Positions 24,036 to 63,300 of a stretch of 64,000 bases of DNA are shown in pieces; the first letter of the stretch is position 1, and every line of letters begins with the position of its first letter. A program made the translations under genes and the position numbers. Under the pieces are notes generated by a model. It saw only the letters and a list, made by a program, of their open reading frames with translations, made no database searches and was not told where the DNA came from. Source of the DNA: Bilabrum cf. latius. Taxonomy: Eukaryota. Location of the stretch: positions 372,001-436,000 of the forward strand of contig OZ237754.1 of assembly GCA_965178125.1 (NCBI GenBank), written 5' to 3'.

Positions 24036-24281
24036 TCGGAAAGTCTACTACTTGATTTGACCTCATGCTGAGAATATCAAGATTCGTTTGTTCGTTCGTT
24101 CGCTGTAGATCTCTAGTGCTTTTAAAGTCACGTTCACTTCTAGACAACATACAAATACAACATAAACAAAACATGGGTACGAAGGCCAGCGGCGGCTTCG
24201 ACTTATCCTTAATTGGGTTCACATTTTTCATGGGCCAAAGTCATCAGCATTGGCCACCTGTGGAAATGCGTCACGCGTGGA

Positions 24282-37400: not shown

Positions 37401-38906
37401 GACGTACCACGTTCAATAGTGTTGGACGGAGGTGCAAGTGCTGAGCTGCAGTTGCAGCGCAGAGCCCACCGGAGTACAGTCGGTAGCGTCTCTGGGCAAA
37501 CAGAGTCGCACCAATCAAACCCATCGTTGAGGTCGCACCGCACAGGCTAGACGTGGAGCACGGTCACATCGCGAGGCGGCGCATCCCTCGGTGCATGGCA
37601 CGCGGTACACACCGGCAGCACCTGCTCCTCGCACATAGATGCACCCCACGTGTGCTGGGCATCTAACCATGATGTTCTACCAAGGGTCTCCTCGCTCGGA
37701 TTTGCACGAAATTCAATGCAAACGACATCTGTAGGATCCGATAAGCATTTGACCGATGAGGATGACAGGGTTTCTAAGCCGAGTCAGCAGGCTCGCAGAC
37801 TGCTGGCAGGTTCAGTAGTCCAGCAGGCCGAATCTGGTTCAATGCAGTCTGCATCAGATGGACGGGAGTCTACAAGGTCGGTAAAATTCCTTTTCGAGAC
37901 AGCCAAGCATAGACAGCATGCGTCAGAGCGGTGCACATTGCCGGAGACATGCCCAGGCGCATGGAGAAATCAAGCAACGTCGGGGCCAGAACACGGTTGG
38001 CACAACTGGACCGCCCTTTGCAACCTCTTTCGCCCCTTGCATCGGTCTATTCGCCGTATTAGGGTTCGACAAAATGCACTGCAGTCCGGGACGGCATGGC
38101 GTGTGCCTGCTCGCTCCGAAGCGTCGCATATCGGCCGCGCCTCTGTCACGACAGCGCCTATTGGTTGCGAAACGCAGACACCTGCTTCCAAACCGCGAAT
38201 CGATCCAGTGTATGCATCCCGCGCATCATCCGGCGGGGATAGCCAAGCCAGCACGTTCGAAGGAGCGCGGTCTCCTGCCACAGTGAGATCCGGCGCTCCA
38301 GTCGCAACGAGGACGAGCAGCGGCGGAGAAGTGTCTGTGGCAACCGCGAACAGCAGCACAAGAAGCGCATCTAGCGTGTTTCAGACAATGCGCGCAAGTA
38401 GCACTGCCACACGCACGGGAAGTATCCCAGGCGCGCCTGGGCAGCCAAGGGAAGGTGGCGGCAGCGCCAGGACAAGCGCTAGCAGCGATGGTGAATCGCT
38501 GGTAGGCGAACCTTCGGCAGACGGGAGCCCTAGTCAGTGGCCCGCCGTGAGTTCGATTGCAGCAGGGAGCACGCAGCCTGATCCGAGTCCCGGCTGGGAG
38601 GTAGGATCCCAGCAAGATGGGGGCGGCGCGACCCACGCTGCTCCCCTTGACCTGAGTGACAGGCCCACTGGGGACGACATGCGAGCCAGGGCCGTCGCAA
38701 TGGGAGTTGCCACAGATAGTAGCGTGCACTCCGGCTCTGTGGCTAGCACGGACAGGACTCGCACGACCTCGGCTCGGAGCAGGGGCACGGGGCGCACTGG
38801 GGCGAGCAAGGCATCCGTGGGGATCGGCTCCCAGGACCCAGAGACTGGAGAGATGTACACGCCAGAGGCATGGGATCTGGCCAGAGCACAGGCTGGTTAG
38901 TCGTAA
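34413..38906 (+). CDS. Armadillo-repeat protein with an N-terminal pseudokinase-like region and Ser-rich tail (may splice into the next CDS)
   Basis: ARM repeats (GAIDGLVQLL...AAGALRNMA) at ~35930-37300. Kinase-like REMQALKSMPRHKNV and IAEGMLHLKQHG...LDLTLD*IMW. One frame broken only by TAG. Ends at TAA 38904-38906 unless GTTAGT at 38896 is a splice donor. Start uncertain. Confidence 0.7.
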
Positions 38907-39091
38907 TGAAAGCCGTGCGCTGTATACTTGGGCTTTCGAAGCCGCGGTGCGTGGGTTGCAAAAGTTGCGACCTGCAGCCTTGCCTGTGTCTTCAAGTTGC
39001 GACCGAGCACCCATTCGTTCGGAGCCATTAAAAAGTGCCGTTGAGCCAATATTTCGTCTTTGTCCGCTTAAACATCTGCTAGTGCAAAGCA

Positions 39092-42000
39092 ATGAATGGC
39101 TCAAGCACGAACAATATGTGGATTAGTCAAGTTTGGGGTCATGACGACGATGTACCCCTTGTTGAACTGTGCATCGTGCTCCGACCGCTGTTGCATGGGG
39201 ATGGTTTGACTGCTCCAGATGTCCTCCGCGCTGCTGCAGCAGTAGTCCCCCAGGCATTTGGCCCTCCAAGCTCCAACGAGTCAGTTTTTCACATTCTGAA
39301 TGTCTGGTCGCAGCTTTTGCATCCCATCAAAGCAGCAACACGTGATGACGAGGACGAAGGTAGCGGTGCGCGCCGATCGGTACGCCGGAGCGACTCGCCT
39401 TTTGAGGCTCGGTACGGAGAGCATAAGTCTGACGTCGAAGAAGAAGCTAAGTAGAGACTTATTTCTGAGATTCAGGCGGCCAACACCTCGAAGCCACTGC
39501 TGAACTTGGACAGCTTTCGCGTGGCGCTCCAGCATCCGACAGTTTGGCGAGACGTCATGCTAGGACGCCTGCCCTCAGGGGCAATAGGACCCATGCTGCA
39601 GCATTTACCGACATGGTGGATGCTTACGCCGTCGCTTGCCCTCAGCGAGCTCGTTGCAGTCGCTGGAGATGACTCGGACGCCAACAAGACTTCCGGCAAG
39701 TTGAAGGCAGCTGAGCACCTGCAGCTGCGGAGAGGATCGGCCGGCAGAAGCCTCTCATAGACTTGGCACGTTCATCCGCACTTACTGGCTTCCATGGAGG
39801 AATGCAGGGGCCTCCCTGGCTCCATTATCCCCAGGGATAAGCTGCCTGCGGTGCTCGCGAGAATCGCGCAGGCCCGCTGGAGGCACCATAGCACGGGCAG
39901 CCTGCTGGCCATGGCCGCCCATCTCAACTCAACCGGGCCAGGAGCAGATCTAGCAGAATCTGGTGAAGCAGAGCGGCCAGGTGCCGGCTTAGCGGGGGGT
40001 TTCATGCCGCCAGATGGACATGGCCAAGGATTTCATGATCACCCATCGCCTCCTAGGCGGGGTTCACCCACCAGACCTCGCCCAATGAGCTCGGTTCGAG
40101 CCTTGAACGCAGCAACTGCTGAAAGCGCGCGGCTCACTGCCGAGCAGATGCTATTCTCAGCCGAAGTTCGCCTTCTGTGCCTACCGCGACTGGCAGCATT
40201 GCTTGCTCGCGACAAAGCCAGGGGCATTGCTGCGGTGCTCGCGGTGAGAAAGCGAAGGCGAGAGCGGCTGGCCCAGACCTCCGCGAAGGATGAAGAGGAC
40301 GAAGATGCGGCCCTGTTTGGGGGGCATCAGCTCTCGAGTGCCGGCCTCGGTACCGAGAGCCAGGGCGGCAAGGATCCTTCGACATCAAGCCGAGGCGCGG
40401 GTGCGTCGGCAGTCACGGGCGTGACGGCTGGGTCCGAGGGCAGCACTGGCAGGAGGGACGGCATGGATCTGTTTCGCACCACTAGCAAGTACGGCAGCGC
40501 GTCATGGGGTTCGCTTGCCGCGGCTGGAGCACACGGGGCCAAGCCCTCGGGCACTGGACCAGGACAGGCACCAGGAGCCGATGGTGCTGCTGCCGACGGA
40601 GAGCCCATGTGCTGGAGCCTGCGCGCGCTCCTGCGCACCCCGACGGAAGACCACTTGCTCGCCCAAGAGGAGCTGGGGAAGGCAGAGGCTGAGATGCTGC
40701 AGAGGAGGAAAGAAGCCGTGGCTGAGGCGAAGAGGGGATAGGAGGACCTCGACCGGCTGCAGCGAGGCAGCTCTGGCAGAGCCGGCGGGGGCAACCGAAC
40801 GGCGGCACCCATGGCCGTGGCTCTCAAGAATCAAAGAACGACGTGGGTGCCGGGTTCTCCTCGAGCACGCAGTCGATAGCCGCAGGAAAGCGCTGGCCAA
40901 AGCACGGCATCTAGGGGTGCAATTGGATCTGTATCCGATGCAGCTGCTCCCAACAGCGAGGATGCAATGGAAAGCGGGCCTGGGAGCATTCAGGACAGGC
41001 GTGCATCGCTGCGAGGTATGGCGCCGTCGATGGGTTCCCTTGTAGACAATCGCCAGCTGCATGGTGGCAAGGCGGCTGTCTTGGATGGAGCCACTGTGGC
41101 CAGCCTGAGCTCGGCGATGAGGGAGGTGCAGCGACGTCTGCGAGGGAGATCCCCGGGCGGTGGTGAGGTGGCTTCGCTTTGGAGGTGTTACTCTCCTGGT
41201 GCCATACAGGCCATGGCGGTGACAGAGACCGCAATCCGGGAAATGGTTGCCTCAGCCTGTGCCAGCTCAAGGCTGTGGGTCTTTGCGCCTCTATCGCCGC
41301 TGCTGCTGCTCCCTCCAACTGCCCCGCGCAGCGCAGCAGAGGCGCGCGCAAGCCTCGGTCTGACAGCAGGAGGCGGTAATACTGCTAGTCTGCTCCCCAT
41401 AGTATCCAACACTGGGGATGATCGGCTGCCCAATGGCGCCGCGGAAGCAGCAGCTGCGTGGCAATTGTGGCCGTCTGCCGGTGGCCAGTCTGGGCTGCTG
41501 CAGAGGTGGGCGAGGGGTGGTGGATCAGGTGCAGGCGAAGTAGCACGAAAGGCCAGAGCCCGCGTGTAGGCACAGGAAGAGAAACAATAGCGGAAAGAGG
41601 GGGAGTGGGATGGCACCGGGAGGCTGTAGTCGGGAGCTCGAGCGGCCACAGGCGGCAGGAGCACCCTGCGCCAGCGGCTTGATCATCACCGAGAATCTGT
41701 CTCGAAGAGGCGGATGGCAGAGGCCAAAGCACGGGTGAAGTTCGACGTTGGTAAGGCAGCAGAGGCGGCAGGCACGGTGCACCTGGCAGAGTCACTGGTA
41801 CGACTTGACCTGCCGCCGCCCGGCGCCACCTCGGGGCAAATGCAGTCTCCGCTGTTGGCTTTTAGCTTGGTTCCGCACGAGATGCCGCCTAGCAGCGGAG
41901 GAATCGACAGCGATGTACACGGAGTGGACGGTGATGCGGGTGCTATTATGTGCTTGCCGCCGCCGTCACTGGTTCAGCATGAGGCGCGTATGTCGCCTGC

Positions 42001-45000
42001 CGTGCTCCTAGGTCTGCTGCGCGGTGCGGGACTGCTGTCAGGCATCGTGGCAGACAGCGATCTAACAAGCTTGCTCCAAGCCTCCAGCGAGCCGTGGACT
42101 GTGCTAGCAAAACTAGGATCAGGAGAGGCAGGGGACGCTCAGGACGAGGTTCGTAGCGCGGGTCTAAGCCCCATGCTGCCTGGCCTTTCCGACCGCGACT
42201 CTGCAGGGGGCCCGGGTGGGTCCAGCACGGCAAGGCGGAACGTGTTCCGAAGAGATATGGCGGATGATAGGGACAGTCCGCGCAGCGCGAGCCGAAAGGA
42301 GCACGCTCGGATCGGAGTGGCCGCCGCGCTGACGCTGAACCGGTGCATGCGCCGCCTGGGACTCGGCGAGGCCGAGCTGGGGCTAGGCCCACGGGATGCA
42401 GCCTGCCTACTCGCGGCGGCTGCAGGCAGCCTGTGGACCACTGCAGCCAGGCCTCTGGCCGATTCCGCTGGCTTGGGCGAGGTTCCACTGCTGACTATGC
42501 GCGGCGACCTCGGGTCCGCGGCACGTGCTCGGCCGACGTCTGCCATGTCCCGCCGTTCGGGGGGAAGCGGTTCCAGGGGGAAGAGACGAATGCGAAGCCA
42601 GGGAAATTCATCGCTCGTCGTTGGTGGAGTTGACTCTGCTCAGTCGGTCCCTAGCAGCTGGCATGCGCCCATCGGGGGCGTTGGTTTCGTGATGGAGGTG
42701 CTCTCACGCGTTGCAGATCACGCTCATTTGCCCCAGCTGCGGACGCTCGCATCGGTGAAGCGCGGGCACGGGGACGACATCCGGGCAGCTGGAACCCTGG
42801 TACCTTCCCGTGGAGAAGATGCGCTGAGGAGGCGCCCTGCCACTGGCGATGCGATGGGTCGCAAGGTATGCTGCTTGCTCGAATGCATGGCGCCATTCGT
42901 CACCGACCGGAAGGCGGGTGCTGCGTCCGGTATCGCAGCAAATCAGGCCGGACTGCCTGGCGATTTCACTTTCAGTGCTTCTGGACGGCCCGGCGGCGAG
43001 CAGGGTGCTCAAGTGGATGCTGCTCTTCGCGCTGTGCTCGCTCCAACGGCGGGTGCGATCGGGACGGAGGCGCAGGCATTTAGGGCCGCACAGCAAGCCT
43101 TTGCAGCGCTTGGAGAGGCGCACGGGCCTGTACTGTCAGAAATGGCTGCCAGCATTGGCAACGGTGCTTAGGTTTCGGGTAAGTCGATCGTGACACTCCG
43201 CACGGCTCTGGCTGTTGGTTCCGGTTTTGCCTCCCCATGCTCAGTTCCCAATATCCGTTTCCTGACCGCGTCTTGTTTCTCTCCTCGCAGTCAAGTCTGC
43301 CTTATAGTTGTCAAGGCTTGCACTTTTCTTTTCCAAGGACGCTAGAGAAGCTTCGACTCTCACTGGAGTCGGGGACGAGGAGGCAGCTGCCCTTCGTCAA
43401 ATAGACGTTGCTGGCCGGAAGAAGCTTGGCAAGCGAATTCAGAGACTTCTAGAGGGCCCACCCGACAAAAATAAGCGAAAACCACCGTAGAAATCGGGTG
43501 GGATGTCGAAAGGGGCTGCAAAGCCGGGAGATGAGCCGTTGTACGCGACTGTACGCTTCAGCGACTCTATTGCTCGGCAGCGCGAGGATTTCATGGCCAG
43601 CCAGGCACTGTCACGGGCCCTGCGGCAAGACGGTGCAATCGAAAGGTTTGGTTATGATGCAGAAGCAGTCGAGAAGAGGCAGGCGGAGGCAGCAGGAGGA
43701 AAGAAGAAAACCTCCAAAAAGAAGAAGGCCAAGTTCAGGCCTGGCCTCCCGGGCAAGCCGGGCTCGCAGCACACAGACGCGTTCGGCGCCGTGGTTGCCC
43801 CGATGCATCCGGGTGATCTAGCCAATGTTGACTTGACAGAGATCGCTGCCATTGCTCGGGGCCGCTCCACGGACGCGGTGTCCGCCCTCTCCGGTGCCAA
43901 GGACCAGAAGAAGGCATAGCTAGCCGCGCGCGGCCGGGCTCGTGCCCACGCATCAGCCATGGCCAAGTGGAAGAAGGAGTGTGCTGTCATCGAAGAGCAA
44001 GCGGCGGAAGTTGAGGAGGAAATTCGCATCATGCGGAAGCGATACAAAAACATGCCGCACCTGATGCCAGCACTGCCAGAGGTGCCCCGCCCTCCACCAG
44101 CACCGGTCCGGCCCAAGACTCCAGAGAAGGCGGATAGGCCTCCCAACTCCTTCTTTACCCTTGCGTCTATGCTGACTGAAGCAGGAATTGGAATAGGCGC
44201 ACAGGCAGCGGGTGCTGATGCAGTGCGAAGCTCAGCTGCTGCCGATCCCACAGCAGCTGACGGGGCCCGCCTCCGGGCCAGTCGGGGTGCAACCGCCAGA
44301 ATGCTGCTGTCACCTTCCATGCCCGAAAACCAGGGTGCTTCTCATGGTGCTGCGGGCTTCGCGGGCGCGCAACAGGGACGAGACCCTGTGACAGCATCCA
44401 GGACTGGTGATTTCAAGGTCCTACTTCCTCCTACCGTGAGTGCCGCTGTGGGTGCAGACACGGCGGCAGAGGCAGCTGGAGGCAAGGCTGGCGGTGCTGC
44501 CGGGCCGAAGAAGAAAACTAAGGCAAGGAAGAAAAAGGCCAACCCGTTAGACGGAGAACTACCGCCCAATCTGCTAGCCCATGTTCCGCGGAGGCCCACC
44601 AGGCGTATGGGTGCTGCTCTCCACAGCGGCTTCGAGAGCACGGGCGGGGCCATGAGTCACATTCAGCGACAGCACGCAGAAGGTGCAAGCAATGTGCCTG
44701 CTGCAGTGGTGGACCCGTATCTGGCGGCAATGTCCTCGACGATCGGGGAGCAGGCGGTCGCCGACACGGCAAGGAGCATGATCCTTCCTGGGCCTGGGCC
44801 TGGCTCGCAGCTGCGGACTGCGCATTCCAGCGGTACGCAGCCCAAGCAGAGGCCCTAGGGCCTAGCTCAGCCAGTTCCAATCGCCGGCATAGACCCTGCA
44901 CGGACGGCCTCTTTGCTGGGCAATCCATCTGCTGTGCTAGCGCAGCGTGTGGCGTCAGTTGGAGATGTTCTTGAAACGGACGGTTCGGTGACTGGCTCAA

Positions 45001-46418
45001 TGTTTGCAGGGGGTGGGCAGGCTAAGATTCTTGGCAGTTCAGCGCACGTACACCACACAGGTCGTGGCCATGGCAGCTCGAGAGGAGGAAGCTTTGTGGC
45101 AACTGTGGCTAGCCATGGCGAGATTTCGGGCCAAGACTCCGCGCCTAGTGGTATCTTTGCAGCCGAGGTAGCCGACCCAATCGTCTAGATATCCATGCAA
45201 TCGCTTGCCAGTGGCGGAAACGCTATCGCGCAGGCGGCATCCGGTGCCCTCCCTCCTGGGTCCAAATTGCAATGGATCGACGAATTCGATCCGCTGGTGC
45301 TTGCTTGCGTCCCTGCGGTGAATCCGCTGGCAGAGCACGTCAAGTCTGCGGTGCAAGCTAGAGACGCTGGTTCCGTCTCAATTGCCAGGGATGAGGCGAG
45401 AAAGTCAGTGCAATTATGGGTTGAGCTGGCACAGACTGCGCTGCTCGGTGGCACCATCGGCAGCAGCGAGCCGCGTGCTGAGGCCAAGACGAAGGCCCAA
45501 ATGGATGCAGAAGACAAAGACATCATGCTTGCGACAGTGCGCGAAGAGCTGCAGCCGTCAGCCAGCACTGGCACATTGCCACGGCCCGGAACCCTGGCCG
45601 GTGGTGCAGCTTCGGAGGCTGGCGAATCGTTGGCAGCAATGGTAAGGGCAGAGGGCAAGCAGCATGAGGACGCCGCTGCTGCTGCTCAAGAAGCCATTCC
45701 ACCGTCTGTCGCTGACAGGGCGCTCCCTGAGAAGGCGCGGGCAACCGCGGTGTCAGTTCGCCTCGCCCTCATCGTGGCGGGTTGCGAGTCGGAGGCAGGG
45801 GAGCAGGGCAAAGCCCTCGAGTGGATACTCGAGGCGAGGTCTGCATGCCTCGGTGCATCACCCTCGCTCGCCCCTTGGCAGAGTGGTGTACCAGACTCGC
45901 ATCCGTTGCACGCAGATGTCTTGTCTTGGATGGGTGGAGCTCTGTACCGGTGCGGGTAGTATGCGCTGTCGGCTCAATGCGCTGCCCGGGCGGCACAGCG
46001 ACGGTCTTCGTCTAGGATGATTGGGCCGACCCATCCCACGACGATGGTATCTTTGGCAAACTTGGGGGCTGCAGCGGCACATGGGGGTCGCACAGCTGAT
46101 GCCGCGGTGCTCATGAAGCGAGCGGCAGCAGGGCTGAGGGAACGATTACCTGCGGATGACGCAAGGTTGGCAGCTGTGCAGATGAACGGAATGCGACTAG
46201 CACGTGCAGTCGGGCGATAGGAGCCCAGCTTGGGCCAGTCGTTAGGCGGGGCCGCCGTGGCTGCACTTGGTGTTGGCCAGCGCCCCGTAGGCCTTTCGGC
46301 GAGACCTGAGCGGCATGCGCTGCTTTCTGACGGGCTTTTCGCAGCGAAGGCAGGCCCTGCTCTATTCAAGCACGGCAAGTCGGGTGGTGGTGGCAAGCAG
46401 AGGAAGAAGCGCAAATGA
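39092..46418 (+). CDS. Very large Ala/Gly-rich protein with coiled-coil segments and C-terminal TPR-like repeats (kinesin-light-chain type); intron 43179-43290
   Basis: Consecutive ORF fragments stay in frame across TAGs. A GTAAGT...CCTGAC...CGCAG intron restores the frame. TPR-like GPTHPTTMVSLANLG...AAVLMKRA; TGA at 46416-46418. The 5' end is uncertain. Confidence 0.7.
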
Positions 46419-46519: not shown

Positions 46520-49500
46520 TCACAACTACTCTACCTCGTGAGAGGTATCGCCGGGTCTCGCCGCGCCTGCCTCGTCACTGATGCTGCCGGTGTCCATTCG
46601 ACTCTAACGGGCAAGCGCTCGCGCCAACCTCCCTAACTCCATGCCTTCCATGCACTCTGCAACTTCCTAGCTGTCGGCCCCGCGAAGAGGATTCAGGGTT
46701 GTCTTTGCTCTGGACTCCTGCAAGTCCCTCTCACTGCTGTTCCTTCTCGAGGAGCTTCGTGAATGTCGTGGGGAGCCCTCAGATAAATGTCCAATAGAGA
46801 CATGGTCACTTGAGCTGTCTGACGATCTGCTAGCCAGCCCGTGTTCGGGCGAGCCAGCACCTCGATAGCAGTCAATGTCGACAAGCTCAATTCCACGACC
46901 GACATTCAGTACTTCCCTTATCCTCCAGTCTTCCGTTCGAGTTGTGCCACTATCACTTCCACTGTTAGTCGTACTTTCAGCGCCATTCATGTTGGACACC
47001 ACGGAACGAGACTCATGAATGGCTGACTTCTGCTTGATTTCCTCCAGTCCCACTGAGCTCAGCATCGCACCCAACACATGCCGCATCACGTTCAGTCCCG
47101 TGAATATCAGTGCCACCAGCGCTGCCAGATTGCCCCCGCCTCCTCGCCCGCCCTGATATAGCACGAAGACCTGCAGCCCAAACTGCACCAAGTCCTCTAG
47201 CACCACCTGAGGGATGCCCAGCAGCCTGAGGCGGTGAGACAGCTCCCGCCGACGAGCCATGTCGCTGGCCGAGTCCGACGCGTACAGACTCAAGGCGGCG
47301 CTTCGGCCCAGCCGGCTCGTGAGCAGGTCCAGCGACTTGGGCCCGAAGATCGACAAGAACGACACACCGTACACCATGCCCCAGTGCTGGCCCGCATGCT
47401 GCCGCAGGCCGTCCACTGGCCAGCAGCGCAGGAGCACCATAGACACTGCGAAGTTCACCAGCATGGATACACCAATGGAGGCTACAGCGATGATGACTAG
47501 CCCAGGCATCTCACAGCTCCTCTCCCGAACCAGCTGGTAGGTGAAGCTTGCGTCACTGACCACGTCCAACACCTGCAGCCCCACGCTGACAACAGTGAAG
47601 GTGCCGCTCCATGATACTAAGTCGCGCTGAAATAGTCCTAACGAAGCCGTCGGAACAATGCCAGCGAGTGCAATCAAACTAATCGTCATGACGCTGGTGT
47701 CCACACGTACCCTGGGGCACGACTCACCTGCCAGATCCACCGTCCATGCCCCCTCGAAGCACCGACACAGCTCGGCAGCCGGCGCGCCCAGCGTGAGGAT
47801 CAGCGGCAGCCCCACGGTCGTGTTGAGCACAGTGGCACCCTGCTGCTGGGCCTTGGCGATGAGCCGCTGGTCCACCAATGCGGCGGTCTGCGAGGCTGAC
47901 AGCACTGAAGTGGCCGGCTGGGTAGTCCTATCATCCGGCGCAATTCCCACGCTTGGCGGCTGCACAAGCACCAGCACGTTGGTGCGACGCGCATTGGACT
48001 CGTCAGTCCGGGCGCCCACCACCCTGAGCCGATCCACCCATGACGCACCTGTCTCCGCACTTGGTAGTCCTCGCACCGCGTACAGGCTAGATGCCTCCAC
48101 CAGCGCGTCCGGCAGTACCCTCTTGAGTGTCTGCAGGTCCATGTCGGGAGGCAGCAGCTGGTCCGTGGCCGGATCTCTCCACACCTGAAGCGAGCCCACC
48201 ACGCCCACCTGTACATGCTGTGCCTCCATGGACGCCCCATCACCCTCTGGAAATTGACTAGGCGACGCGGAGGGCGACGGGGTGGTGGATGGTGTGGGTG
48301 TGGCGCTAGCAGTACTGGATGGGGATGACGAAATCGACACGGAGGGCGTTGGAGACGCGCTGGCTGACGGCGATGCTGACACGCTGGGCGTGGGCGTTGC
48401 TGATGTTGACGGCGTGGGTGTGGGTCTGGCAGTGTCGTTGTAGGACCATAGTTTGGCTAGGCCCGGCCCATCACTAGCACCAAAGTAGAGCAGCGGCTGG
48501 CTGGCATTCGGTGGTATGAAAGATGTCAGGAAAGCCGGGTTGGAGTTCTCGTATCCGTAGTAGAGATCGACAGCCAGGAAGAGGAATGACTGCTTGGCTG
48601 GGTTGTACCCCCAGAGCTCCCGGCCTAGCGGTGGCTAATCTAGATTCCCACTCATATACAGGGTGTCACCTGGTCCCAATGTCAGGTAGATAGGCGCGAA
48701 AGAGTTCAGCGACCTCGACGGTGATCGCACCTGCACGTCTGTTCCATTTCGAAGGTTGACAATGTAGAGCTGCGAACTTCTTGTGGCTGCCGGGGCTGCA
48801 GATAGTGCTAGAGTTTCGTTGTTCAGCAGCGTCATCCAGCGGGGATCGATAATCTGCAGTGCGGGGTCGACTACCAGCTCTGGGTCATCAGGTGGTTGTG
48901 ACGGGTCAGTGCCTGCTGGCTTGACCACGAATAAAGACGAGCTGCTGAACCCGCTGTTGGCCCGCATGAAGAGCCCAACCGCTGTCGAGACCATGTACTG
49001 GGGCGACGATCCCCCCGGCCCTGGCTGCAGGTCCTGCACCATCTGAGGCACCCCTGTACCGTTGTACCACCAAAGCTCGTCACCCTCAAAGAACGACGTA
49101 GCCGTGAAGAATAGACGGCCATCGAACACCGCTAGCTCTCGTGGATTTGATCCCTGCAGCTGCCCCGGCTGCAAGTCAGCCACGAGCTCGGGCTTGCCCT
49201 GCCCAGTGTACCGGTACAGCTCGCGCCCTATGTCATTCCCGCCCTCTGCCCCAAAGTACAGCGCGTCTGGGCCCAGGCCCTTGTACTGGCACAAGGCTGC
49301 TGGATCAGTTCCAAATTCTGCATTGGTGGGCGGCACCGTTTGCAGGCTCACGTTGCGTCCTTCGGCAGCAGCTGTTGGATCGATTGAGTAAAGTTGTTTT
49401 TTGAAGTCTACACCTCGGGCGCCGAAATACAGCCTGTCTCGATAGATTGTTAAGTCTGTAGGAGTAGAGCTGTCAGTTCCCGGCCTCAGGTCTGAGAGAA

Positions 49501-49858
49501 GCACGGCACTGTAGCCATCTGACATCCACAGCTCCCTCCCGTAATCTTCGGTTTGGCCCTGGAAGAAGAGTCGACCGCTTGCCTCGATCATGGCAGATCT
49601 TGGCTGCACGTCTGCAATGACGGTAGCACCTCCCGTACCGACTACTGGTGAAGGGGATGGTGATGCTGATGGCTCTGAGCTATTTGGAGAGCTTGAAGCT
49701 GCCAACTGTCTCCAACCAGCCTGAGGTCGGGATGCCATCCTCATTGCTTTATTGTTTGTTGTCAGTCCAAGAGCAAAAACCTAGCTAGACCAACTGAAAA
49801 CGTTTGCTGAAATGACACACATTCCAATGCAACAATACAAGTTTCTACATGCAGTCAT
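46520..49858 (-). CDS. ELWxxDGT-repeat (beta-propeller) cell-surface protein with a Pro/Ser/Thr stalk and multi-pass TM domain; copy A
   Basis: Repeats GRELWMSDG, GRELYRY, GDELWWY and GRELWGY; SPSPT stalk; about 6-7 hydrophobic helices including IPQVVLEDLVQFGLQV. Reading TAG as sense adds a signal-peptide-like N-terminus from ATG 49858 and extends the C-terminus to TGA 46520. Confidence 0.82.
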
Positions 49859-50179
49859 TGTAGCACGTAAGTTGTTGATACGGACTGGTTACGAGCTATC
49901 TGGCTATCGAACACGAATCAAGCCACAGTCAAGGCGCTCTCGACATACAAGTAGGTGGCAGCCAAAAAGTACGCTGCATCGATTCAGGCGGGAGCTCGTC
50001 GCAGAGTGAATTGTTGTCGCCTCTGCAAGCAGAATGTACGGAACCAAACACCGCGGCGCGGCGCCGCCGGCGATTTGGGTGGAAGTTTTGAGGCCTCCAC
50101 CAATCCACCAACCTGCAGACGCAGCGCCGGGTTTGCATGCCTTATCTCAAGCGAGCGTCTTTTCTAACCAATTAATTAA

Positions 50180-53100
50180 ATGAGTGTATATTGGACAAAA
50201 GCTGGTGGGCATTCACTGCTTGTCATGGTGCTTACTGGGTTGGTAGTACGCTTCACGTGTTTGGCAGAGACTGCTGTACCTGAACACGAGCGAGCGGTCA
50301 GCATGACCCTTCCAGCCTACTTGAGGCATCCAAGGACCTTAACAGCTGCATCAGGTAGTCCGGAGCCCTCAGCAACACCATCACCCTCAGCGGTGCCTTC
50401 ATCGCTTGTTGGCACTGGAGGCGCTACCGTCATTGCAGACGTGCAGCCAAGATCTGCCATGATCGAGGCAAGCGGTCGACTCTTCTTCCAGGGCCAAACC
50501 GAAGATTACGGGAGGGAGCTGTGGATGTCAGATGGCTACAGTGCCGTGCTTCTCTCAGACCTGAGGCCGGGAACTGACAGCTCGATCCCTTCTGACTTTA
50601 CAATCTATCGAGACAGGCTGTATTTCGGCGCCCGAGGTGTAGACTTCAAAAAACAACTTTATTCGATCGATCCCGCAGCAGCAGCCGAAGGGCGCAATAT
50701 GACCTTGCAGATGGTACCTCCGATCGGTGACGACTGGGACACCAGTCCCGAGTCCCTGTGCCAGTACAAGGGCCTGGGCCCAGACGCACTGTACTTCGGC
50801 GCAAACGGCGGGAATGACATAGGTCGCGAGCTGTACCGTTACACTGGCCAGGGCAAGCCCGAGCTCGTGGCTGACTTGCAGCCGGGGGAGCTGCAAGGCG
50901 GAGACCCACAGGAGCTCACAGTGTTCGACGGTCGCCTGTTTTATGCATCATCATCATTTTTCCAAGGCCTAGAGCTCTGGTGGTACAACGGTACAGGGGT
51001 GCCGCAGATGGTGCAGGACCTGCAGCCAGGGCCGGGGGGATCAGCGCCCCGATACATGGTCTCGACAGCGGTTGGTCTCTTCATGCGGGCTACCGTAAAT
51101 TAGAGGACCTCGTCACTGTTCGTGGTGAAGGCAGCAGGCACTGACCCGTCCCAACGACCCAACCAGCCTGAGTTGGTAATAGACCCCGCTCTAGAGATAT
51201 CAGATCCCCAGTGGATGACACTACTTGACAACGACACGCTGGCTATGGCTGCTACACCACGAAACGACGATGTAGGCCTGTTCATTATCGATCTGAAGAA
51301 CGCATCCTAGCCGTTATCCTTTGGGTCCAGCTTATTGTCTGATGCCTATGCACCACAGTTCCTTACCATGGGACCTGGTGGCACCCTGTATATGAGTGGC
51401 TACTCTGTCCAGATTGGCCGGGAGCTCTGGGGTTACAACCCAGCCAAGCAGTCATTCCTCTTCCTGGCTGTCGATCTCTACTACGGCACCGACGACTCCA
51501 ACCCGGCATTCCTGACATCTTTCATACCACCGAATGCCAGCGAGCCGCTGCTCTACTTTGGCACCAGCGATGGAGATGATGACTCGAAGCTCTGGTCCTA
51601 CAACGACACCGCCAGACCCACGCCCACGCCGTCAACATCAGCCACGCCCACGCCCAGCGCGTCAGCATCGCCGTCAGCCAGTGCGTCTCCAACGCCCTCC
51701 GTGTCGATTTCGTCATCCCCATCCAGTACTGCTAGCGCCACACCCACGCCATCCACCACCCCGTCGCCCTCCGCGTCGCCTAGTCAGTTTCCAGAGGGTG
51801 ATGGGGCGTCCATGGAGGCACAGCATGTACAGGTGGGCGTGGTGGGCTCGCTTCAGGTGTGGAGAGATCCGGCCACGGACCAGCTGCTGCCTCCCGACAT
51901 GGACCTGTAGACACTCAAGAGGGTACTGCCGGACGCGCTGGTGGAGGCATCTAGCCTGTACGCGGTGCGAGGACTACCAAGTGCGGAGACAGGTGCGTCA
52001 TGGGTGGATCGGCTCAGGGTGGTGGGCGCCCGGACTGACGAGTCCAATGTGCGTCGCACCAACGTGCTGGTGCTTGTGCAGCCACCGGCTATGGAGCCAA
52101 CACTTGATGAATCTACCCAGCCGGCCACTTCAGTGCTGTCAGCCTCGCAGACCGCCGCATTGGTGGACCAGCGGCTCATCGCCAAGGCCCAGCAGCAGGG
52201 TGCCACTGTGCTCAACACGACCGTGGGGCTGCCGCTGATCCTCACGCTGGGCGCGCCGGCTGCCGAGCTGTGTCGGTGCTTCGAGGGGGCATGGACGGTG
52301 GATCTGGCAGGTGAGTCGTGCCCCAGGGTACGTGTGGACACCAGCGTCATGACGATTGCCATGATATCTTGCGCGATCATTATTCCGTTCTGTGGGCTGG
52401 GTCTGTTTCAGCGTGACCTTGCATCACCAAGCGGCATCTTCACTGTTGTCAGCGTGGGGCTGCAGGTGTTGGACGTGGTCAGTGACGCAAGCTTCACCTA
52501 CCAGCTGGTTCGGGAGCGGAGCTGTGAGATGCCTGGGCTAGTCATCATTGCTGTAGCCTCCATTGGTGTATCCATGCTGGTGAACTTCGCAGTGTCTATG
52601 GTGCTCCTGCGCTGCTGGCCAGTGGACGGGCTGCGGCAGCATGCGGGCCAGCACTGGGGCATGGTGTACGGTGTGTCGTTCTTGTCGATCTTCGGGCCCA
52701 AGTCGCTGGACCTGCTCACGAGCCGGCTGGGCCGAAGCGCCGCCTTGAGTCTGTACGCGTCGGACTCGGCTAGCGACATGGCTCGTCGGCGGGAGCTGTC
52801 TCACCGCCTCAGGCTGCTGGGCATCCCTCAGGTGGTGCTAGAGGACTTGGTGCAGTTTGGGCTGCAGGTCTTCGTGCTATATCAGGGCGGGCGAGGAGGC
52901 GGAAGCAATCTGGCAGCGCTGGTGGCACTGATATTCACGGGACTGAACGTGATGCGGCATGTGTTGGGTGCGATGCTGAGCTCAGTGGGACTGGAGGAAA
53001 TCAAGCAGAAGTCACACGGTCGTGCCGTGGATGTATCTAGACGTGCAGAGCCCGCATTGCATGCCAGAAGACTACAACCGAGCGTGTCAGCCTTGATTTT

Positions 53101-53425
53101 TTCTGGATCGCATTGGATGTCGCCTGGTGGAGCTGGTCAGGGCCCGGTTGCTCTTCCTGTAGACTCGGAGGGCGAATCGAAGCGCACCAGTACAGTCTGT
53201 CCAGTACAAGCAAGCAGTCCCAGTGCCACTAGTGCAGGTAGTGCCGCCTCCAGAGCAACACTTAATCCGCTTCGTGGAGCCGAGGACGGGCAAGTGGCAT
53301 CATGGATGCAGGAGATGGAGGAGAGCAGGATGCCTAAAGGGAGCGGCCCCGATCCAGACTCGTTGCTTGAGCCGAGCCCGACCAGTGACTAGGTGAGTGA
53401 GAAACACGGTGTGGAGGCTCTTTGA
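50180..53425 (+). CDS. ELWxxDGT-repeat cell-surface multi-pass membrane protein; copy B (inverted paralog of copy A)
   Basis: Same architecture as copy A, with a hydrophobic signal peptide. In-frame TAGs at 51101, 51308, 51908 and 53390; TGA at 53423-53425. The C-terminus HGVEAL matches HEVE*L in copy A. Confidence 0.82.
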
Positions 53426-54396: not shown

Positions 54397-57300
54397 TCAC
54401 ACGAACCCGCTCGCGCCCCCGCGGCTAGGCCGCCTCGTGCCCCTCGGCGTGAAGCCCTTCCGCTCATCCTCAGCCGACACACCCAGAGATGCACCTGCTG
54501 GCGCCACGACCTCCTCTGAGGAACCACCGGCAGGCCCGCCCACCAGCTTGCGGGCCTGCGTGGCCGCGCGGTCGCCCATGGGGTTGGCGAATGCGAACTT
54601 GCTCGGGCCGCTGGAAGGAGGCAGGGGCTTGGACCCGGCCAGGGCCGGCTTCCCGCCCTTGCCTGAAGACCCCCCGCTCTGCAGGCCAGCCAAGGGCCCT
54701 TGCGTCACGCGGTAGCCGGCGCCTGACCGCCTGGTGGACGACATGTAGTACGCCAGACCCACTCCTGCGGCCACCACCACCAGCGCGCCCACCACCACGC
54801 CCACGATCAGCCCCGTGCTGGCCCCGCCAGGAGCAGCACCATCGCCGGGCAGCTCCTCGCCCATCACGTCCTCCACGGACCCGAAGCACACGGTGCCCAG
54901 CAGCATTGACTCTCCGTCAGACGCGATCGTCATGCCGCTCTGCATGTCCAGGCCAGTCACACCGTCCATGTCGCCGGCGAGCACCACAAGGCTGGCGCGC
55001 CTCCGGTCCGCTGTGGCATCGCCCTCCGGCATGGGGGCATCCTCGGCTCGTAGTGGGATTACCGCGCTGGCCTGCGCCTCTCCCGCAGCGAACTGCACCG
55101 TTACTGTGCTCGACACCCCGCCTGCGTTGTAGTCCGCCCCCTCCTACGCGGCGCTCGCGATGCCCTCTCCGGGTGACACCACAGTCACAGTAAGCTCCGC
55201 GGGGCCGGCAGACGCCGATTCCGTCCTGGTCAGCACCACTGTGGCCTGCTCGGCCCCGAAGTAGTTGCACTCACCGTCCACGTCAACGCTCTCAACCTGC
55301 GCGATGTCGTCGTCTACGATCCGAAGCACCGCCTCCGACTGGAGACCGAAGTCGTTCTCACCTGCGATGCGCGCCCCGCCAGTGGCAGCCGACAGCCGCA
55401 GGCCCACTGCTTCGGTACGCACAGCGCCCGCCCTGCTAAGCTCGGCGATGGCATCCTGGATGGAACTAATAGACACGGTCTTCGAGTCCTCGCCGCGCCC
55501 GAACGATAGCTCGCCCGATGCGGCAACGAAGTCGCCGGAGCTCGCGGGCATGGACCCATCCTCCAAAGCGTTCTGCAGCACGTATGCTTCGTACCGCACA
55601 GTCACTGGGTCATCTCCGAAAGTGCCCAGCTCTCGGCGGACCTCCAGGTTGGCGCTGCCGCCCTCGCCCACTTCGTACCCAGCCTCTGACCAGCTAAACA
55701 CTCCACGACCGAACGAGATGCGTCCGCCCGTCGTGATCTGCTCGCCAAGCTCGCCCTCGCCCGTGGCGGCAGCCTCGATGGCTGCAATTTCTTCCTCGGC
55801 GGTGCGCTCCACATCCGTCGCATTCTCGGACACAGGGGCCGCAGGCTCGGCGGGAGGCACAACTTCCATGGCCTGGATGCCCACACCCAGCGTGTCCTGC
55901 AGAGAGCCAGACAGTGCCTCCTCCACCAGCCGCTCCTGGGCTGCCACCAGCTCCTCATACTGGGCGTGCCTCACCTCGAATTCCGCCTCCTCCTCTGGAT
56001 CCACACCGTCCACGTCGCCCTCGCCCTCGCCCTCGCCCTCTGTCTCCACCTCGTCGTCCTCCAGAGCATCGATTTCGAAGTCCACGCGGGCCGATCCTGC
56101 CACCACATTGACCACCCGGATGCGGTTTGACGCGATGTTCAGCACGAACGCCAGCCGGCCCATGAACTCGTCCTGCTGGTCGTAGAACGTGTCGATGTTG
56201 AGCGCCAGCGTCAGCGACACCTGGATCAGCGGCACGGTCCGGATCTCCACGTACCCCTTGCCCTTCACGTTGAAGTGGATCGTGCGGGCCAACCGGAAGT
56301 ACGCGTTAGCGCCGTCGTCGGACGAAGGCGAGATGAAGTCGTCCGTGCCGTCGTACACGTCCCCGGGCCAGTTGGTGTCGTTCACGAACACCATCGCGTC
56401 TCCGCGTCCGGTCACCTGATCGCCGGACTTGTACACGCGCAGCTTGTTCGGGTTGGCCCTCCAGTTGGCGATGGTCACGGCCTCGCTGTCGGCCGCGTGC
56501 AGCAGGTGCCAGCGCATCTTCTGCGGCACCGTGGACATGAAGTAGATGGTCAGGTGCTGCGGCACGGGCACGATGGAGTGGAACAGAGAGAGCCTCTTGA
56601 GGCAGGTGTACCCGGCGCACCAGCCGTGGTCCATTTGGGAGTTCATCTGGTTCAGGTATCCTCCACCCAGCGTGGCGTTGTTGCCGTCCTTGCCTAGAGC
56701 TTCCTCACGCAGCAGAGTCTCGGTGCCAGTCACGCCGCCCGTGCCGGTGGTGAGGACGTTCATGGGAGCGAGGCTCCTCGTCTCCGAATCGGGGTCCATG
56801 CTCTCCACCGCCAGCATTCGGTAGTTGAGAGTGGACCTGCAGCGGTAGGCCTGCCAATTGCGGTCCAGCTCGCATCCGTCAGTTCGTGCGATGCCGCGTC
56901 CGATGGCTAGATCGTCCTCGGCGATGCGCGTGCCGTCATGCCTGGTGATCATGGTGATTGGGATCCACCAGCGCGCGCGAGAGTTCCTGAACTCTGACTC
57001 GGAGAAGATGTTGTAGTAGATGGGCTCGGTGGCGGACGAGTCGCCGGTCTGCGCCAGACCGCTGAACGATCCGTCCAGGTCGTTGATGAGCACCTGCTGC
57101 AGACCCTCGCAGTCAAAGATGATGCAATCGGCTTCGTTGATCCACCCAGGGTTGGGTCGATCGATACGCAGGCGGTTTGCAACCGGCGTGGAGACCCACT
57201 TGATGCCTCGAGCGTGCGTCGGGTGCGTGACGTCGGGGCTGGCGGGGTTGGTGCGCACCGCGCGAGGCGTTACGGCACACTGCCCAGAGGAAAGAGCTCC

Positions 57301-60300
57301 GCTGGATGGCTGCTTCTGCCCGTAGTTGACAAACCGAACGTTGGTGATGATCGTCTTGCCGCTGATCTGACCGTAGCTACCCACCTCGTGTGGGGGTGAC
57401 ATGTCGAGCGACATCGGCCCGCCAGAGACGAACGACGGGATGAAAAGGCCCAGGCGAGATACACCCATCTGTCCCCGGCCCCAGGACCAGCGCCAGCGCT
57501 TGGTTGGCAGCGCTTCAGAGCAATCAGAGTCGGCCCCATAGCCCACAAAGATCGAGTTGCTGACCTCGACGTACTGGTCACCGATCAGGTGCCTTGCCGA
57601 GGCAAAGCCGAACACGAATGCGCCCACCGCCACACGCTCGTCCACACTGGTGTGGCTGGTGACCTTCACCTTGGCCCTGGACCAGGTCAGGAACCCGTAC
57701 TCGCTCGCCTTCCAGCTCTTCATGCCATGCACCTGCAGACAGCCGCCGATGCCGCGGGTCATTCGGATGTTAAAGTGAGAGCCGTGGGCCTCATTGCCGT
57801 CAAAGTAGCGGCGCCCGTCGGACATCACGCCGGCATTTCCGCAAGGCAGGCTGCTCAGGTAGAACCCGGACCTCTCGCTGCCGCCCGCCACGTTGTCTCG
57901 CACGATCGCGTTGGCACCCATGATCTCAAACCCACCGGGAGTGCGGGTGTCCTAAGCAAGGTTGTTGCCATGGTGCGTTCCAGGGAACACAGAGTTGATC
58001 GCGAGATTCTTGCGGATGCGGGTGCCCGGGGAGTCGGTGCGCACGGCCGCGCCCACCGACCTCTAGATCACATTGCTGTCAACATACACGTTCCTGCTCC
58101 CAGAAACGACCACACCCAGCTGGTAGAGGTTGTGCATGGAGCAGTTCAGAAGGCCGAAGCTGCCGCTCGCCGGCGGTGCAGCCGGGGCAGCGCTGCCGGG
58201 GGTCACGCCCAGGAAGGCCACGGCGGCGCCCTCTCCGTTGTTCTCCCCGAGAGCAAAGTGGCCGGCCTTGTGGAACTCCACGTTGCGGATCAGGGCTGAG
58301 CCCTGGTACGAGTCCGTGCACACGTCATTCTCCTCGTACGCGATCATCACGCGGGCGCCGAAGTGGTCCTGCTCCGTGTTGATGAAAGCAGTGTCGTCCT
58401 TGGGGTCCTTGAGGTCGGTCACGTCGGCGCCCTCGATCTTGATGTTGCGGGTGAGCAGACCAACCTCGGGGGCGGTCGTGATCTCTACGCCGTCGTACGT
58501 GGCTGTCGTCACCGTGTGCGCGTGCGTGAGGGCCGCAGACACGGTTACCTCCGTAGTTGTCACACCGCCAGTCGTGGAGGCGCTCGCGATGGCGGAGATC
58601 GTCCTGGTCTCGGCATCGCCAGGCTTGAAGGAGCTCGTAGATACGGAGATCTGGTCGCCCACGCGCCACCCACCGTCAGTGGCGTCGCCGTTGATCGTCA
58701 GCACAGTGTCTCCAGCATCCGCGGTGGCTGCCAGCTTGGTCCAAGGCAGCTGCACCTCGCGGCCCTCCATCTCGACCTGGCCTAGCACGGCCAGCGTGGA
58801 CGCGCCGATGATCGTGTGCCCGAAGCCCAGGTGGTCCGTCATGCGATCGCCGGCCAACTTGATGGTCGCGCGGCCCGGGTACGGGTCACCGCCGCCGTCG
58901 CCGCGGATGCGCAAGAGGCCCTCGTGCCTCACGACGATGCGCATGGCAGTCAGCACGATCTCGTCCTCGGGTTTGTCCTCCACGCTGTCGTGGGCGAAGC
59001 GCATGCGACCAAGTACGGAGAGCGTGCCCAGCTCCGGCGTCGACTCGTCCAGCTCCACGTTCAGGTGCCACGGAATCGTGACGTTCTCGCCAGCCTCCGT
59101 CGGCTTGCCGTCGTCGCGCTGCGCGATGTCGGTCCAGAAGGTCTCGCTGCTCCACTTGTACCAGGTGCTGGTGCGCGTCACTGTCCTCGAGGCCTGGCAC
59201 GGCGTCACGATCGGGCACCCGGTCTTGGGGCAGTCGAAGGAGCGGAAGCTGCCCTGCACAGTCTCGCGGTTGTTGTTGGTCTTATCCTGCTTGCTCAGGC
59301 TAAAAGTCACCCGGCGATCCACGTCATCGTAATAGTACGACCCCGGAGCATCCGTGCTAGTCGGCAGCTGCTGCAGCGCCGTTTCGAAGCCACGGATGTT
59401 GAAGTAGGCCGGATCCTGCATGTAGTCGATGTGCAGCAGGATCTGCTCATTCCGTCGGAACTCTCCCTGGTCATACGAGAAACGGTCGGGATCCACACGG
59501 GGTGTGTGCTCCCACTTGACACCGATCGAGGAGTCGGCGCCCACAGGGAGGGTCATCACCCACCCGCTTGGCTTGGTCTTGCGCTTGAGCTGCCACACAA
59601 CGGAATCTGTCGAGTCTCCCAGTGACAGGATCATTGGGACGTACCTGGCAATGCGCTCGGGGGCGGCATTGTTCACTGCAAACCTCCGGAAGCGCATGTT
59701 GTTACAGACCTTGCCCTGGAAGCCGGTGACGTCCTGGCAGTCGTCAAACTCTGGCAGCAGGCCGTTGTTCGGGACCAGGGAGCGGAAGTTGCGGAAGCTG
59801 CTGGGCGCGTTGGGCACCAGCGTACCATCCGTGTCCTCGTGCACACCCTCATGCTTCCACCGCCACATGACCCGGTTGGGGGTGTTGTCGTAGGCGATGC
59901 GGCGGAACCTGGTGGTCCATCCGCCACCGAGCGGCGTGAACCCCTCGCACTTGGAGCAGCCGCGCACGGCGTACGTGCTAGACTTGTTGTAGTTGGCGAA
60001 CGTGATCCGGTCGAACGTGAGGCCGTGGTCGGCGGCCGTGAAGATGCCGTGGCCCCTTGGCCCAGCCACCATCAGCACGTCTTGCACGGTGTTGGCGCCC
60101 CACTCGCCGCCTATGAACCCGCCCTGCGCGCCAGCCATCTCGAAGCCAGCCTGCAGGTTCTCCACTACCTGCATCTGCAGGAAGCGAAGGTGCGACTGAG
60201 CCGTTACAGTCACACCGTTCTTGCCGTTGCGGTACGACAGCAGACCCTTGAAGGTCCCAGTCCTGGCACGCGAGCTGGGATTGCAGGGCTCAACGCGTGG

Positions 60301-63300
60301 CGCCAGGAAGTGGTAGATGCGCAGGCCATAGTGGCTGTTGGAGTGCGCAACGTTGTTCTCGAACTTGCGCACGCGGGCGTGCCTGGGGCACACGCCGGTG
60401 CCCAGGCCCTCCGCTGCCATCACGCCGGTCACTGATGCCTCATCTTTGTACCAGAAGCCGTACCTAGCGCCTGATGCCACGTTGTTCACAAAGGTGTTGT
60501 CGGGATTGGTGATCCAGAAGGCGGCAGGCGTCTGGTCTACATTCAGGAGAGCGAAGCTGGGACCCACCTGGGTCACCAGCACGCCGTCCACGGTGTTGTC
60601 GGTTTCGCCACCATCTTCCACGAACACGGCGTGGCCCTTGACGTCATAGGCAACAGAGTCCTCGATCTTGAGATTCTTGACCCCGTGGATGGTGAAGGCG
60701 CGGTTGAACGTGCGATGCACAGCCACGCTGCGGATGTAGGAGCGGCTCACGCTGCCAACCATGTGGAAATGCAGCGGGTAGCGACCAAGGCGGAAAGCCT
60801 GCCCCACGCGGTACAGCTCGATGTCCTGGAACCTTCCCTGCACGGAGTTGTCCCCGCGGGAGTGCAGCATGATGTGGGCGCCGAACTGGTTCGGCAGGTC
60901 GCTGTCAACGGCACCCTGGAACTTCACCGTCCTCGTGAGCAGCGCCACCTCGGCTGCCATAGTGAAGCTATGGATCGCCTCCCGGGCTCCCGCGCGGTTG
61001 CTGTAGCCGCTGTCGGGCTCGTACGTCCTGTCCTCGGCGATGTGGGTCCACGATAGTGTCTCGTTCAGCCCGATGGTCTTCAGATTGCCAGAGATTGACG
61101 TGATCTTCCTGGGCTCGGCATGTGTAGGATCGTAGTCAGTGGAGGCGATCACGATCTCGTCGCCCACGCGCCAGTCCAGAGCCTGCTCGGCCAGGGTGAT
61201 GCTGTTGGCGCCAGCAGCGGCTGTAGCGGCCAAGCGAGTCCAGGGGCGGCGCACGGGCCGGCCATGCATGTCCAGCTCACCGTTCCGGACCGCAATCATC
61301 TTGGTGCCGTACACGGGTAGCTCAAGCTGCTTGACGTGCCCGTGCATGGTGATTGTCGCCTTGTTCGTGGTGTACGGGTCGTCTGAGGTACCGACCTTCA
61401 TCTTGCCACCGTTCACGATGATGTAGTGGGCGTCCAGGTTGATGTCACGGCTCGTGTCGAACTCCAGCTCGCCCTGAATCACAATGGCGAAGAGCTTCGG
61501 CGGGCTCACGTCCAGCACGACCTTTTGACCAGCTGGGATCTGCACCGAGTCGCCCTCCACCGGAGGATCAAGGCCGCCCCAGGTTGTCTTGAGGCTCCAC
61601 GCGTCCACGTACTCGTACGTCACGCGAGTGGACACGCTGAACGTGCCACACGTGTCGTGCTCCAGGGTAATCGCGCCGGGCTTGCCGTGCAGGGCCCCGC
61701 CGGCACGCTTGGTCACGCAGTTCAGAGCAGTGCCACCGCCACCGATGCTATCCAAGCGGCAAAAGTTGTTGAAGGTGCGGATGCGGTTCCCGTCACGGAT
61801 CTTGAGCTTGATGGACAGCTTGGTGGTGTCCGCCCCGAAGCCCTGACCGTTGATGACCAGTTGTGTGCCGCCCTTGGTGGAGCCACGGAGCTTGTTGATT
61901 GACGTGACGACGCGAGCTCCGCTGCAGGAGCCACCGCCGCCCAGCAGCGGCGGTAGGCCGAGCCCGAACAGGCGGCGACGCCCGCCCGCATTGTCGTAGT
62001 ACTGCGAGTTGGCCGAATCCATCGGCTGCACTTCGGCACCAACAGCCTCAGCTGACGTGCATCCGAAGACGTCCACGGTGTGAAGGCCCACGCGATCGTG
62101 GCTGCCGCTCTCCCTAGAGTTCCGGGTCACGATGCGGACAAAACGCCCAATCGGTGCCGAATCCAGCTTGGTGACCGGATCCACGGTGGACAGCAGGAAG
62201 TCCGAGGCGGCCTCACCGGACGTACTCTCGTGCCCAGTCACCCAGGCCGACCCGTCGCGAGAGACGTCGATCCTGTAGTACCCAGGCCTGGTGTCCCACC
62301 ACTGCACGCGCACGCGCGACACGGCCGCCTGCTGGTGCAGGTCAACGGTGAATACCTGCTGGTTGGAGGCACCCTGCGTGGAGCGAGAGCCAGACACCCA
62401 GCGGGTGTTGTCGTTGCCATCCAAGGCGCGGTGGGGCTGATGGTCAGGGTTGGACCACGAGGACGTGGCGGTGGCGGTGGCCGGCGTGCCGGGGCCGCTC
62501 AGGAGCTGACCGTTCCCGCATGTGCCGGGTGCAGCCGCCACTGGCACTGCCCTGGGCCTGTGGAGCACGACATCGCACACTCCCTGGGCGTCCACCGAGG
62601 GCAGGCGTGCGGTGGCCGACTCTTCAGAGGGCATCCTGTACTTGATGACTAGACGCGGCGCGACCTTGTCGCCCTTCATGCCGTCGCCGTCCGTGTCCAC
62701 GTTGGCAGCACCAGAGTAGAACACCCTGCGGGACTCCTGTGCCCTTCCCCGAGCCTCGGCGAGCGGGTCGTCATCCTGCCCCTCTTCGCCTTCCGATTCG
62801 CCCTGTGCGGCAGCGGCATTGGCGAGCGCGATCTCAGTGGCAAGCCCAGGGTAGTCCTCGGGTTCGAACCCCTCGAGATCCATGGGTTCAGAGCCGAGCA
62901 CTTCCTGGGCGCCCTGCAGCACGCTGAGCTCCTCGTCGGTCAGCTCGGCAGCGCGCAGCACGAACGGGAATGCCACGGTGGGCGCTGCATCGGCCTCGGT
63001 GCGTTCCGGCATCTGCTGGGCAACTGAGGGGCTCCAGGGCCAGGACTCGGAGCTGATATGCTTCTGCACCAGGTGCGCGATGTTGGGCGAGCGGTAGGAC
63101 TGCCCCTGGGCCTTGAAGCGGTCGAACATCCATGCCACGGGGCTGGCCCCAAAGTAGGCGGCGCTGCTGTTCATGGCGTCACTTATCGCGCCATTGCTCA
63201 GGTCGCAGACGTGACCCTGGGCGCACCCGGGGGTGCCAGTCAGCGTGCCAATCTCGAACTTAATGTCACCGTCAGCGCCGATGCCCTGCGAAGCGCTCAC

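Follow-up and report, generated by a model that had tools for sequence, protein, structure and literature searches.

The 64-kb stretch of DNA analysed here (the window, from whose first letter all positions are counted) carries two paralogous genes, copy A (46520..49858, minus strand) and copy B (50180..53425, plus strand), arranged as an inverted, head-to-head pair ~320 nt apart, with their similarity starting near 49679/50368. Copy A encodes a 1112-aa ELWxxDGT-repeat protein with a putative ATG start, five in-frame TAG codons and a TGA end. Its 1081-aa paralog has four in-frame TAG codons (at 51101, 51308, 51908 and 53390) and ends with the TGA at 53423-53425. An exchange of CAG in copy A for TAG in copy B had led the initial annotation to treat the two triplets as synonymous and the amino acid as glutamine (Gln), a proposal that we examine here. 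Both copies pass the curated cut-off (65) of TIGR04534, with 116.8 bits (E 3.1e-34) for copy A and 110.9 bits (E 2.2e-32) for copy B. This model was built for prokaryotes, whereas here the ELWxxDGT repeats precede a Ser/Thr/Pro stalk and several hydrophobic C-terminal segments (a layout read by eye); the predicted products are probably cell-surface proteins. A prokaryote-type repeat domain is in this way set within a eukaryotic membrane-protein layout, and its origin is possibly horizontal.

The exchange proved exact. Copy A reads GAC ATG GAC CTG CAG ACA CTC AAG, with the CAG (Gln) at 48131-48133 on the minus strand, and copy B reads the same with TAG (51908-51910, plus strand) in its place, both positions agreeing base for base. 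The surrounding arms (47955-48454 in A, 51587-52086 in B) are 98% identical over 500 nt. In copy B 493 open codons separate this TAG from the next one, at 53390, after which the frame reaches its TGA; at the rate of stops in shifted frames, the chance of a 1081-codon frame without TAA or TGA is p ~8e-12. A second exchange, for which NLD*PPLGRELW of copy A had been aligned with YSVQIGRELW of copy B, held up only in part. The TAG at 48635-48637 (minus strand) faces a CAG of B under one gap placement, found in two alignments, and TCT in a third, and the case is weaker than claimed because the stretch is diverged and contains a two-codon indel (A has two extra codons). Both alleles of the first exchange are present in public sequencing runs, in which matches to the window amounted to 8 rows from 4 studies; one of the runs, X1, may stem from the source sample. 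A piece from run X7 (46550-49995) corresponds to A and a piece from run X8 (51623-52458, depth 2) to B, each with 0 differences, and the contigs that collapse the two copies carry T at the swap site in X1 and C in X5. Copy B has no cover in X7, which we do not use as evidence.

An objection to reading this TAG as sense is that copy B could have become a pseudogene by a nonsense mutation, the swap being an ordinary premature stop. Among nonsense changes CAG to TAG is the most frequent, as is well established, and the ratio pN/pS between the two copies is higher downstream of the TAG (0.53) than upstream of it (0.35). Inside the block, however, there are 11 synonymous versus 2 non-synonymous differences (TAG being counted as Gln), and pN/pS is 0.07. 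The block is thus under purifying selection, and the downstream value comes from differences concentrated in two short diverged patches. Against a pseudogene stand also the five TAGs of copy A itself, the presence of TAG in 16 of 16 long frames of the window and of internal TAA or TGA in none of them (partly by construction, see below), the TAG positions shared with a relative and the occurrence of B-only sequence in a spliced-RNA run. Judged by its sequence, copy B appears to be decaying in no obvious way and is not a nonsense pseudogene, an explanation that we regard as very improbable. The similarity of the pair is a mosaic, in which blocks of 98% (500 nt) and 96% (902 nt) identity alternate with diverged blocks of 74-85%; this patchy identity suggests repeated gene conversion between A and B.

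A single CAG/TAG swap is insufficient as proof of synonymy, and it is the window-wide pattern that carries the case. When TAG alone is read as sense, the window (59% GC) contains 10 frames longer than 1000 codons, as compared with one each under the standard code, with TAA as sense and with TGA as sense. The 16 long frames, hand-selected as TAG-open and covering 17,731 codons, contain 103 TAG, 536 CAG and 175 CAA, so that TAG, if read as Gln, makes up 12.7% (103/814) of the Gln codons. In a set of 14 frames (the 16 minus copy B and with two frames joined) the coding frame contains 97 TAG but 0 TAA/TGA, while each shifted frame has 46-71 TAA and 281-357 TGA. The zero is partly a matter of construction; the lengths of the TAG-open frames are not (p <1e-11 each). 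Pfam domains (MYND, DENN with ankyrin, ARM, G8/CEMIP and DDE transposase) flank TAGs on both sides. The share of TAG among Gln codons drops as the GC content of third codon positions (GC3) rises (rho -0.78, p 0.001, 14 genes), a behaviour that fits a minor synonymous codon. All evidence taken together, TAG is almost certainly a sense codon.

Other departures from the standard code were considered and rejected. A table 6 code, in which UAA would also be Gln, conflicts with the 0 in-frame TAA in the 14 frames, the lack of any long TAA-sense frame and the two genes ending with TAA. Reading through TGA opened many short overlapping frames, none of them long. A prokaryote or phage using code 15 is at odds with the GT-AG introns and the eukaryotic domains, which together indicate that the window comes from a eukaryote.

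Among 15 genes, 13 end with TGA and two with TAA. It counts against an exclusively sense role of UAG that a few TAG-terminated genes could go unnoticed, because the frames were chosen as TAG-open and cannot reveal them. UAG might be dual, i.e. Gln inside genes and a terminator close to the ends of some transcripts, or leaky in competition with an unchanged eRF1. A late TAG, as one of the last three sense codons, occurs in 2 of the 15 genes (binomial p 0.03), in line with this possibility. At the 3′ end of copy A (46520..46540, minus strand), however, the TAG lies two codons ahead of a TGA homologous to that of copy B and aligns with GCT in B. Both copies thus terminate at the homologous TGA, and the passing of A's late TAG before it argues against position-dependent stopping. 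A leaky UAG, in turn, would be expected to leave genes with 15 and 21 TAGs with little full-length protein. Overall, a dual or leaky UAG seems unlikely. The two genes with TAG two codons ahead of the stop (38898-38909 and 46520-46528) are the ARM-repeat gene (34413..38906, plus strand, 11 in-frame TAG, TAA end), which has a tandem TAA TGA, and copy A; their late TAGs may be relics of ancestral UAG stops.

The behaviour of these codons in transcripts could be followed in run X5, which is RNA by guess only and was available as unstranded assembled contigs, which drop rare variants. One X5 contig skips the interval 43179-43290 (GT..AG), which X1 and X8 cross ungapped, and splicing of this intron fuses two frames into a 2404-codon gene of unknown family (39092..46418, plus strand) with 15 in-frame TAG and no other stop. 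X5 pieces specific to copy A (48578-49037) and to copy B (51013-51463 and 52985-53756) were both found, so that the expression of copy B, which the initial annotation had asked to be checked, is borne out by B-only sequence in a spliced-RNA run. The ARM-repeat gene, the spliced gene and copies A and B have 35 TAGs between them, of which 31 fall within X5 pieces that show 0 differing letters, 31 nt or more from the piece ends. Of the other four, two border the splice and one has no cover in the listed pieces; at 51908 the contig is collapsed and shows the A allele. The absence from X5 of the very TAG of the swap, where the collapsed contig has C, has to be set against our interpretation. The B-only pieces and the zero-difference TAGs nevertheless indicate, within the limits of unstranded contigs, that copy B is transcribed and that neither editing nor splicing removes TAG. 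That the TAGs are edited in RNA, removed as small introns or simply assembly errors is accordingly a proposal to which we assign hardly any probability: it can draw on the guessed nature of X5 and on the loss of rare variants from contigs, but 31 TAGs appear there with 0 other letters, one intron is the only gap, and runs from three further studies match the window. With these transcripts, the window-wide frames, the purifying selection in the swap block and the same code in relatives, the synonymy of CAG and TAG is upheld. Another X5 contig feature concerns gene arrangement: a single contig (39073-47053) takes in both the spliced gene and the 3′ end of copy A. The two genes converge, with ~100 nt between them, and their 3′ UTRs possibly overlap.

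Comparison with relatives bears both on the generality of the code and on the amino acid. A syntenic metagenome locus (L001), the only close relative among 5 loci found, carries in its positions 1-1664 a dioxygenase and a SET/MYND gene arranged tail-to-tail as in the window and with the same intron position, and its last dioxygenase exon is identical in 138 of 162 residues. The window ortholog, a 2-oxoglutarate dioxygenase (8257..9645, minus strand), has three exons without an exonic TAG; a TAG at ~8836 was dropped as an in-frame case, being intronic. L001 has three in-frame TAGs over its two genes, and its dioxygenase ends with TAA where the window has TGA. In addition, the ARM-repeat gene has a relative's orthologue that is deposited as four standard-code fragments (66-86% identity) from a 5786-nt contig. 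Three of these fragments end directly before a window TAG (residues 228, 481 and 1046), whereas the fourth does so before a CAG of the window (724), the stops being deduced from protein ends and not from DNA. As far as such comparisons can tell, the code extends to related species.

In each of the four close comparisons with a Gln codon on one side, TAG stands against CAG: the paralog swap, L001, ARM fragment P0172 (its stop likewise taken from the protein end) and the RPQSA motif, three internal copies of which have CAG and the fourth TAG (1840-1842, plus strand). In the L001 case, the TAG lies opposite a CAG of the window dioxygenase. The corresponding column among 120 homologs has Gln 92 and His 20, with Tyr absent (0) from the top six residues, and is Gln in the window and in the six clade neighbours with an intact end that entered the tree. 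TAG also occurs within Gln-rich repeats at 11190 and 13570.

The alternative that UAG is sense but stands for Tyr, His, Lys or Leu finds its footing in a group of columns that weigh against Gln. The TAG at 58063 of the fibrocystin-like gene faces His 66, Tyr 16, Phe 9 and Gln 0 among 95 homologs of ~30% identity, and that at 57952 is in a variable column with Gln outside the top seven. The ankyrin TAG column is dominated by His (His 61, Gln 10, Met 7, Tyr 4), the TAG at 36300 lies opposite Lys in the ARM relative (in distant ARM repeats Gln is commonest there, at 23%), Gln tops only one of five ARM TAG columns, the other four being variable, and the two TAGs in the MYND gene of L001 face Ala and Arg in a stretch of 49% identity. 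Nor did context tests narrow the choice, leaving most residues possible: the guess from codon context was uninformative, as it put the true residue on top for only 16 of 59 control codons, and a second test excluded Cys only. On the other hand, His/Gln and Lys/Gln exchanges are common, the close comparisons agree in 4 of 4 cases and the clade neighbours have Gln in the L001 column. A residue other than Gln therefore appears quite unlikely, and UAG, on this comparative evidence, very probably encodes Gln.

The lineage was approached through the dioxygenase as a marker. Its best named relative is from the marine flagellate Cafeteria roenbergensis (cluster of P0003, ~60% identity), and the protein search returned no match above 60% identity, which suggests that named protein sets lack the organism. 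In careful trees of 31 rows under two models (one gene, 29 homologs hand-picked from 155), the window and L001 together form a long branch that joins the Cafeteria clade with support of 100/97 and 100/98; the oomycete and chrysophyte rows fall elsewhere. No close named match was found for the other window genes searched (DENN, ARM and fibrocystin); the DENN search gave 16 ankyrin proteins and no orthologue, and the fibrocystin search 99 distant, mostly animal proteins. The trees suggest that the organism is likely a bicosoecid stramenopile related to Cafeteria.

Our best explanation, which we hold with considerable confidence, is that the window comes from the nuclear genome of an intron-poor eukaryote, a probable bicosoecid, in which UAG means Gln while UAA and UGA are stops (a table 15 type of code). 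The swap would then be a synonymous transition (C/T) between inverted paralogs that are both live, and a recent one, since patchy gene conversion would hold parts of A and B near-identical. As to how such a code could arise, a duplicated tRNA-Gln(CUG) may have changed its anticodon to CUA, a single change that would let it pair with UAG and not with UAA, while eRF1 may have lost or weakened its recognition of UAG and kept that of UAA and UGA; PMC5304391 and PMC11687900 contain the reasoning that this mechanism follows. TAG could subsequently have spread as a minor Gln codon via CAG-to-TAG transitions, least in high-GC3 genes. Some findings speak against this explanation: the 64-kb window contains no tRNA (ARAGORN; Rfam), eRF1 is absent from the 17 window frames scanned, a quick tree of 70 rows left the window unplaced, and one gene carries the lineage assignment. 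No rRNA was detected in the window either (Rfam).

The rest of the window adds further genes and elements. A DENN plus ankyrin gene (28428..33965, minus strand) has 21 in-frame TAG and a TAA end. The fibrocystin-L-like (G8/CEMIP) gene (54397..63999, minus strand) is 5′-open, with 3200 codons, only 3 TAG and a GC3 of 0.82. The frame at 61-2418, which includes the four RPQSA motifs, has a urease-beta-like domain at its N-terminus (PF00699, E 2.4e-7) and is otherwise low-complexity. A transposon candidate (21862-27762) is bounded by 26-nt imperfect inverted repeats (21862-21887 and 27737-27762) and combines DDE_Tnp_4 frames (21967-24035, plus strand, 10 in-frame TAG) with a convergent frame (24282-27443, minus strand) of about seven 174-nt tandem repeats; we take it to be likely of PIF/Harbinger type, a label derived from Pfam and general knowledge. 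In its main transposase frame TAG accounts for 8 of 20 Gln codons, which suggests that the element has adapted to the code of its host. No relative of the transposase turned up among the viral contigs searched, and a trial splice of its two frames gave no single frame. The adjacent interval 19594-21826, which lacks a long frame, contains inverted pairs of 18 nt (19594-19611 and 21809-21826) and 29 nt (20783-20811 and 21524-21552) that are perhaps nested non-autonomous elements. At 53585-53637, many contigs from all four mapped runs have loose ends and the depth jumps; this short stretch resembles sequence that is repeated elsewhere or in other organisms.

The code itself is already known, albeit rare, and what is distinctive here is the lineage, the high GC content and the UGA-dominated termination. 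UAA and UAG are almost always reassigned together, and the exceptions bear on how eRF1 can skip UAG and still stop at UAA and UGA. In the users of table 6 (Tetrahymena, hexamitin diplomonads, ulvophytes and Amoeboaphelidium) UAG is likewise Gln but UAA is sense as well, whereas UAA is a stop in the window. According to PMC11687900, a table 15 code has been reported for Iotanema spirale, Hartmannula sinica, Trochilia petrani and Protocruzia tuzeti. The three ciliates among them have the same codon table as the window, and UAG is a minor Gln codon in both settings (18.5% in H. sinica versus 12.7% here). UAA is, however, the commonest stop of these ciliates, to which the authors tie its retention, whereas the window is 59% GC, UGA-terminating and probably from another supergroup branch (PMC11687900 for the ciliates). 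Iotanema spirale (Fornicata) resembles the window in having UAG as Gln with UAA kept as a stop, and its authors predicted a tRNA-Gln(CUA) and noted a T32G change in eRF1 (PMC5304391). It differs as an anaerobic metamonad with UAA as primary stop, as opposed to UGA in 13 of 15 genes and a marker pointing to Bicosoecida here. The published UAG-only cases that we compared, as far as their available text goes, concern uncultured or hard-to-grow taxa or partial assemblies and are mostly UAA-terminating; for the Gln cases among them no tRNA was found.

Cafeteria roenbergensis/burkhardae (Bicosoecida) falls in the same supported dioxygenase clade as the window and differs in GC content (~70% vs 59%); its nuclear code is taken as standard. 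The accessible text of the Cafeteria genome preprint (10.1101/751586) names a non-standard code only for the mitochondrion. Full-text literature searches, covering result listings and the starts of abstracts and not supplements or subscription journals, returned no nuclear UAG reassignment in stramenopiles, and the available portions of PMC13768787, PMC12153298 and PMC11412368 contain nothing further on the question. We lean slightly towards the broader view that the window represents an unreported bicosoecid clade, comprising at least two GC-rich, UGA-terminating species, in which UAG means Gln without ambiguity and a resident transposon has been recoded to suit. This would be the first non-standard nuclear code in Stramenopiles, and UAG would have been uncoupled from UAA independently, with neither AT pressure nor UAA-dominated termination at work. 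Standard gene calling shreds such genomes (cf. the ARM orthologue in four database pieces), which would keep the lineage hidden from surveys. Viruses and transposons of such a lineage would need to cope with its code. If this view is true, the public DNA and spliced-RNA runs would let the changes in tRNA and eRF1 be read directly, and a GC-rich, UGA-terminating lineage beside the standard-code Cafeteria would put to the test those explanations that invoke AT-richness or a preference for UAA.

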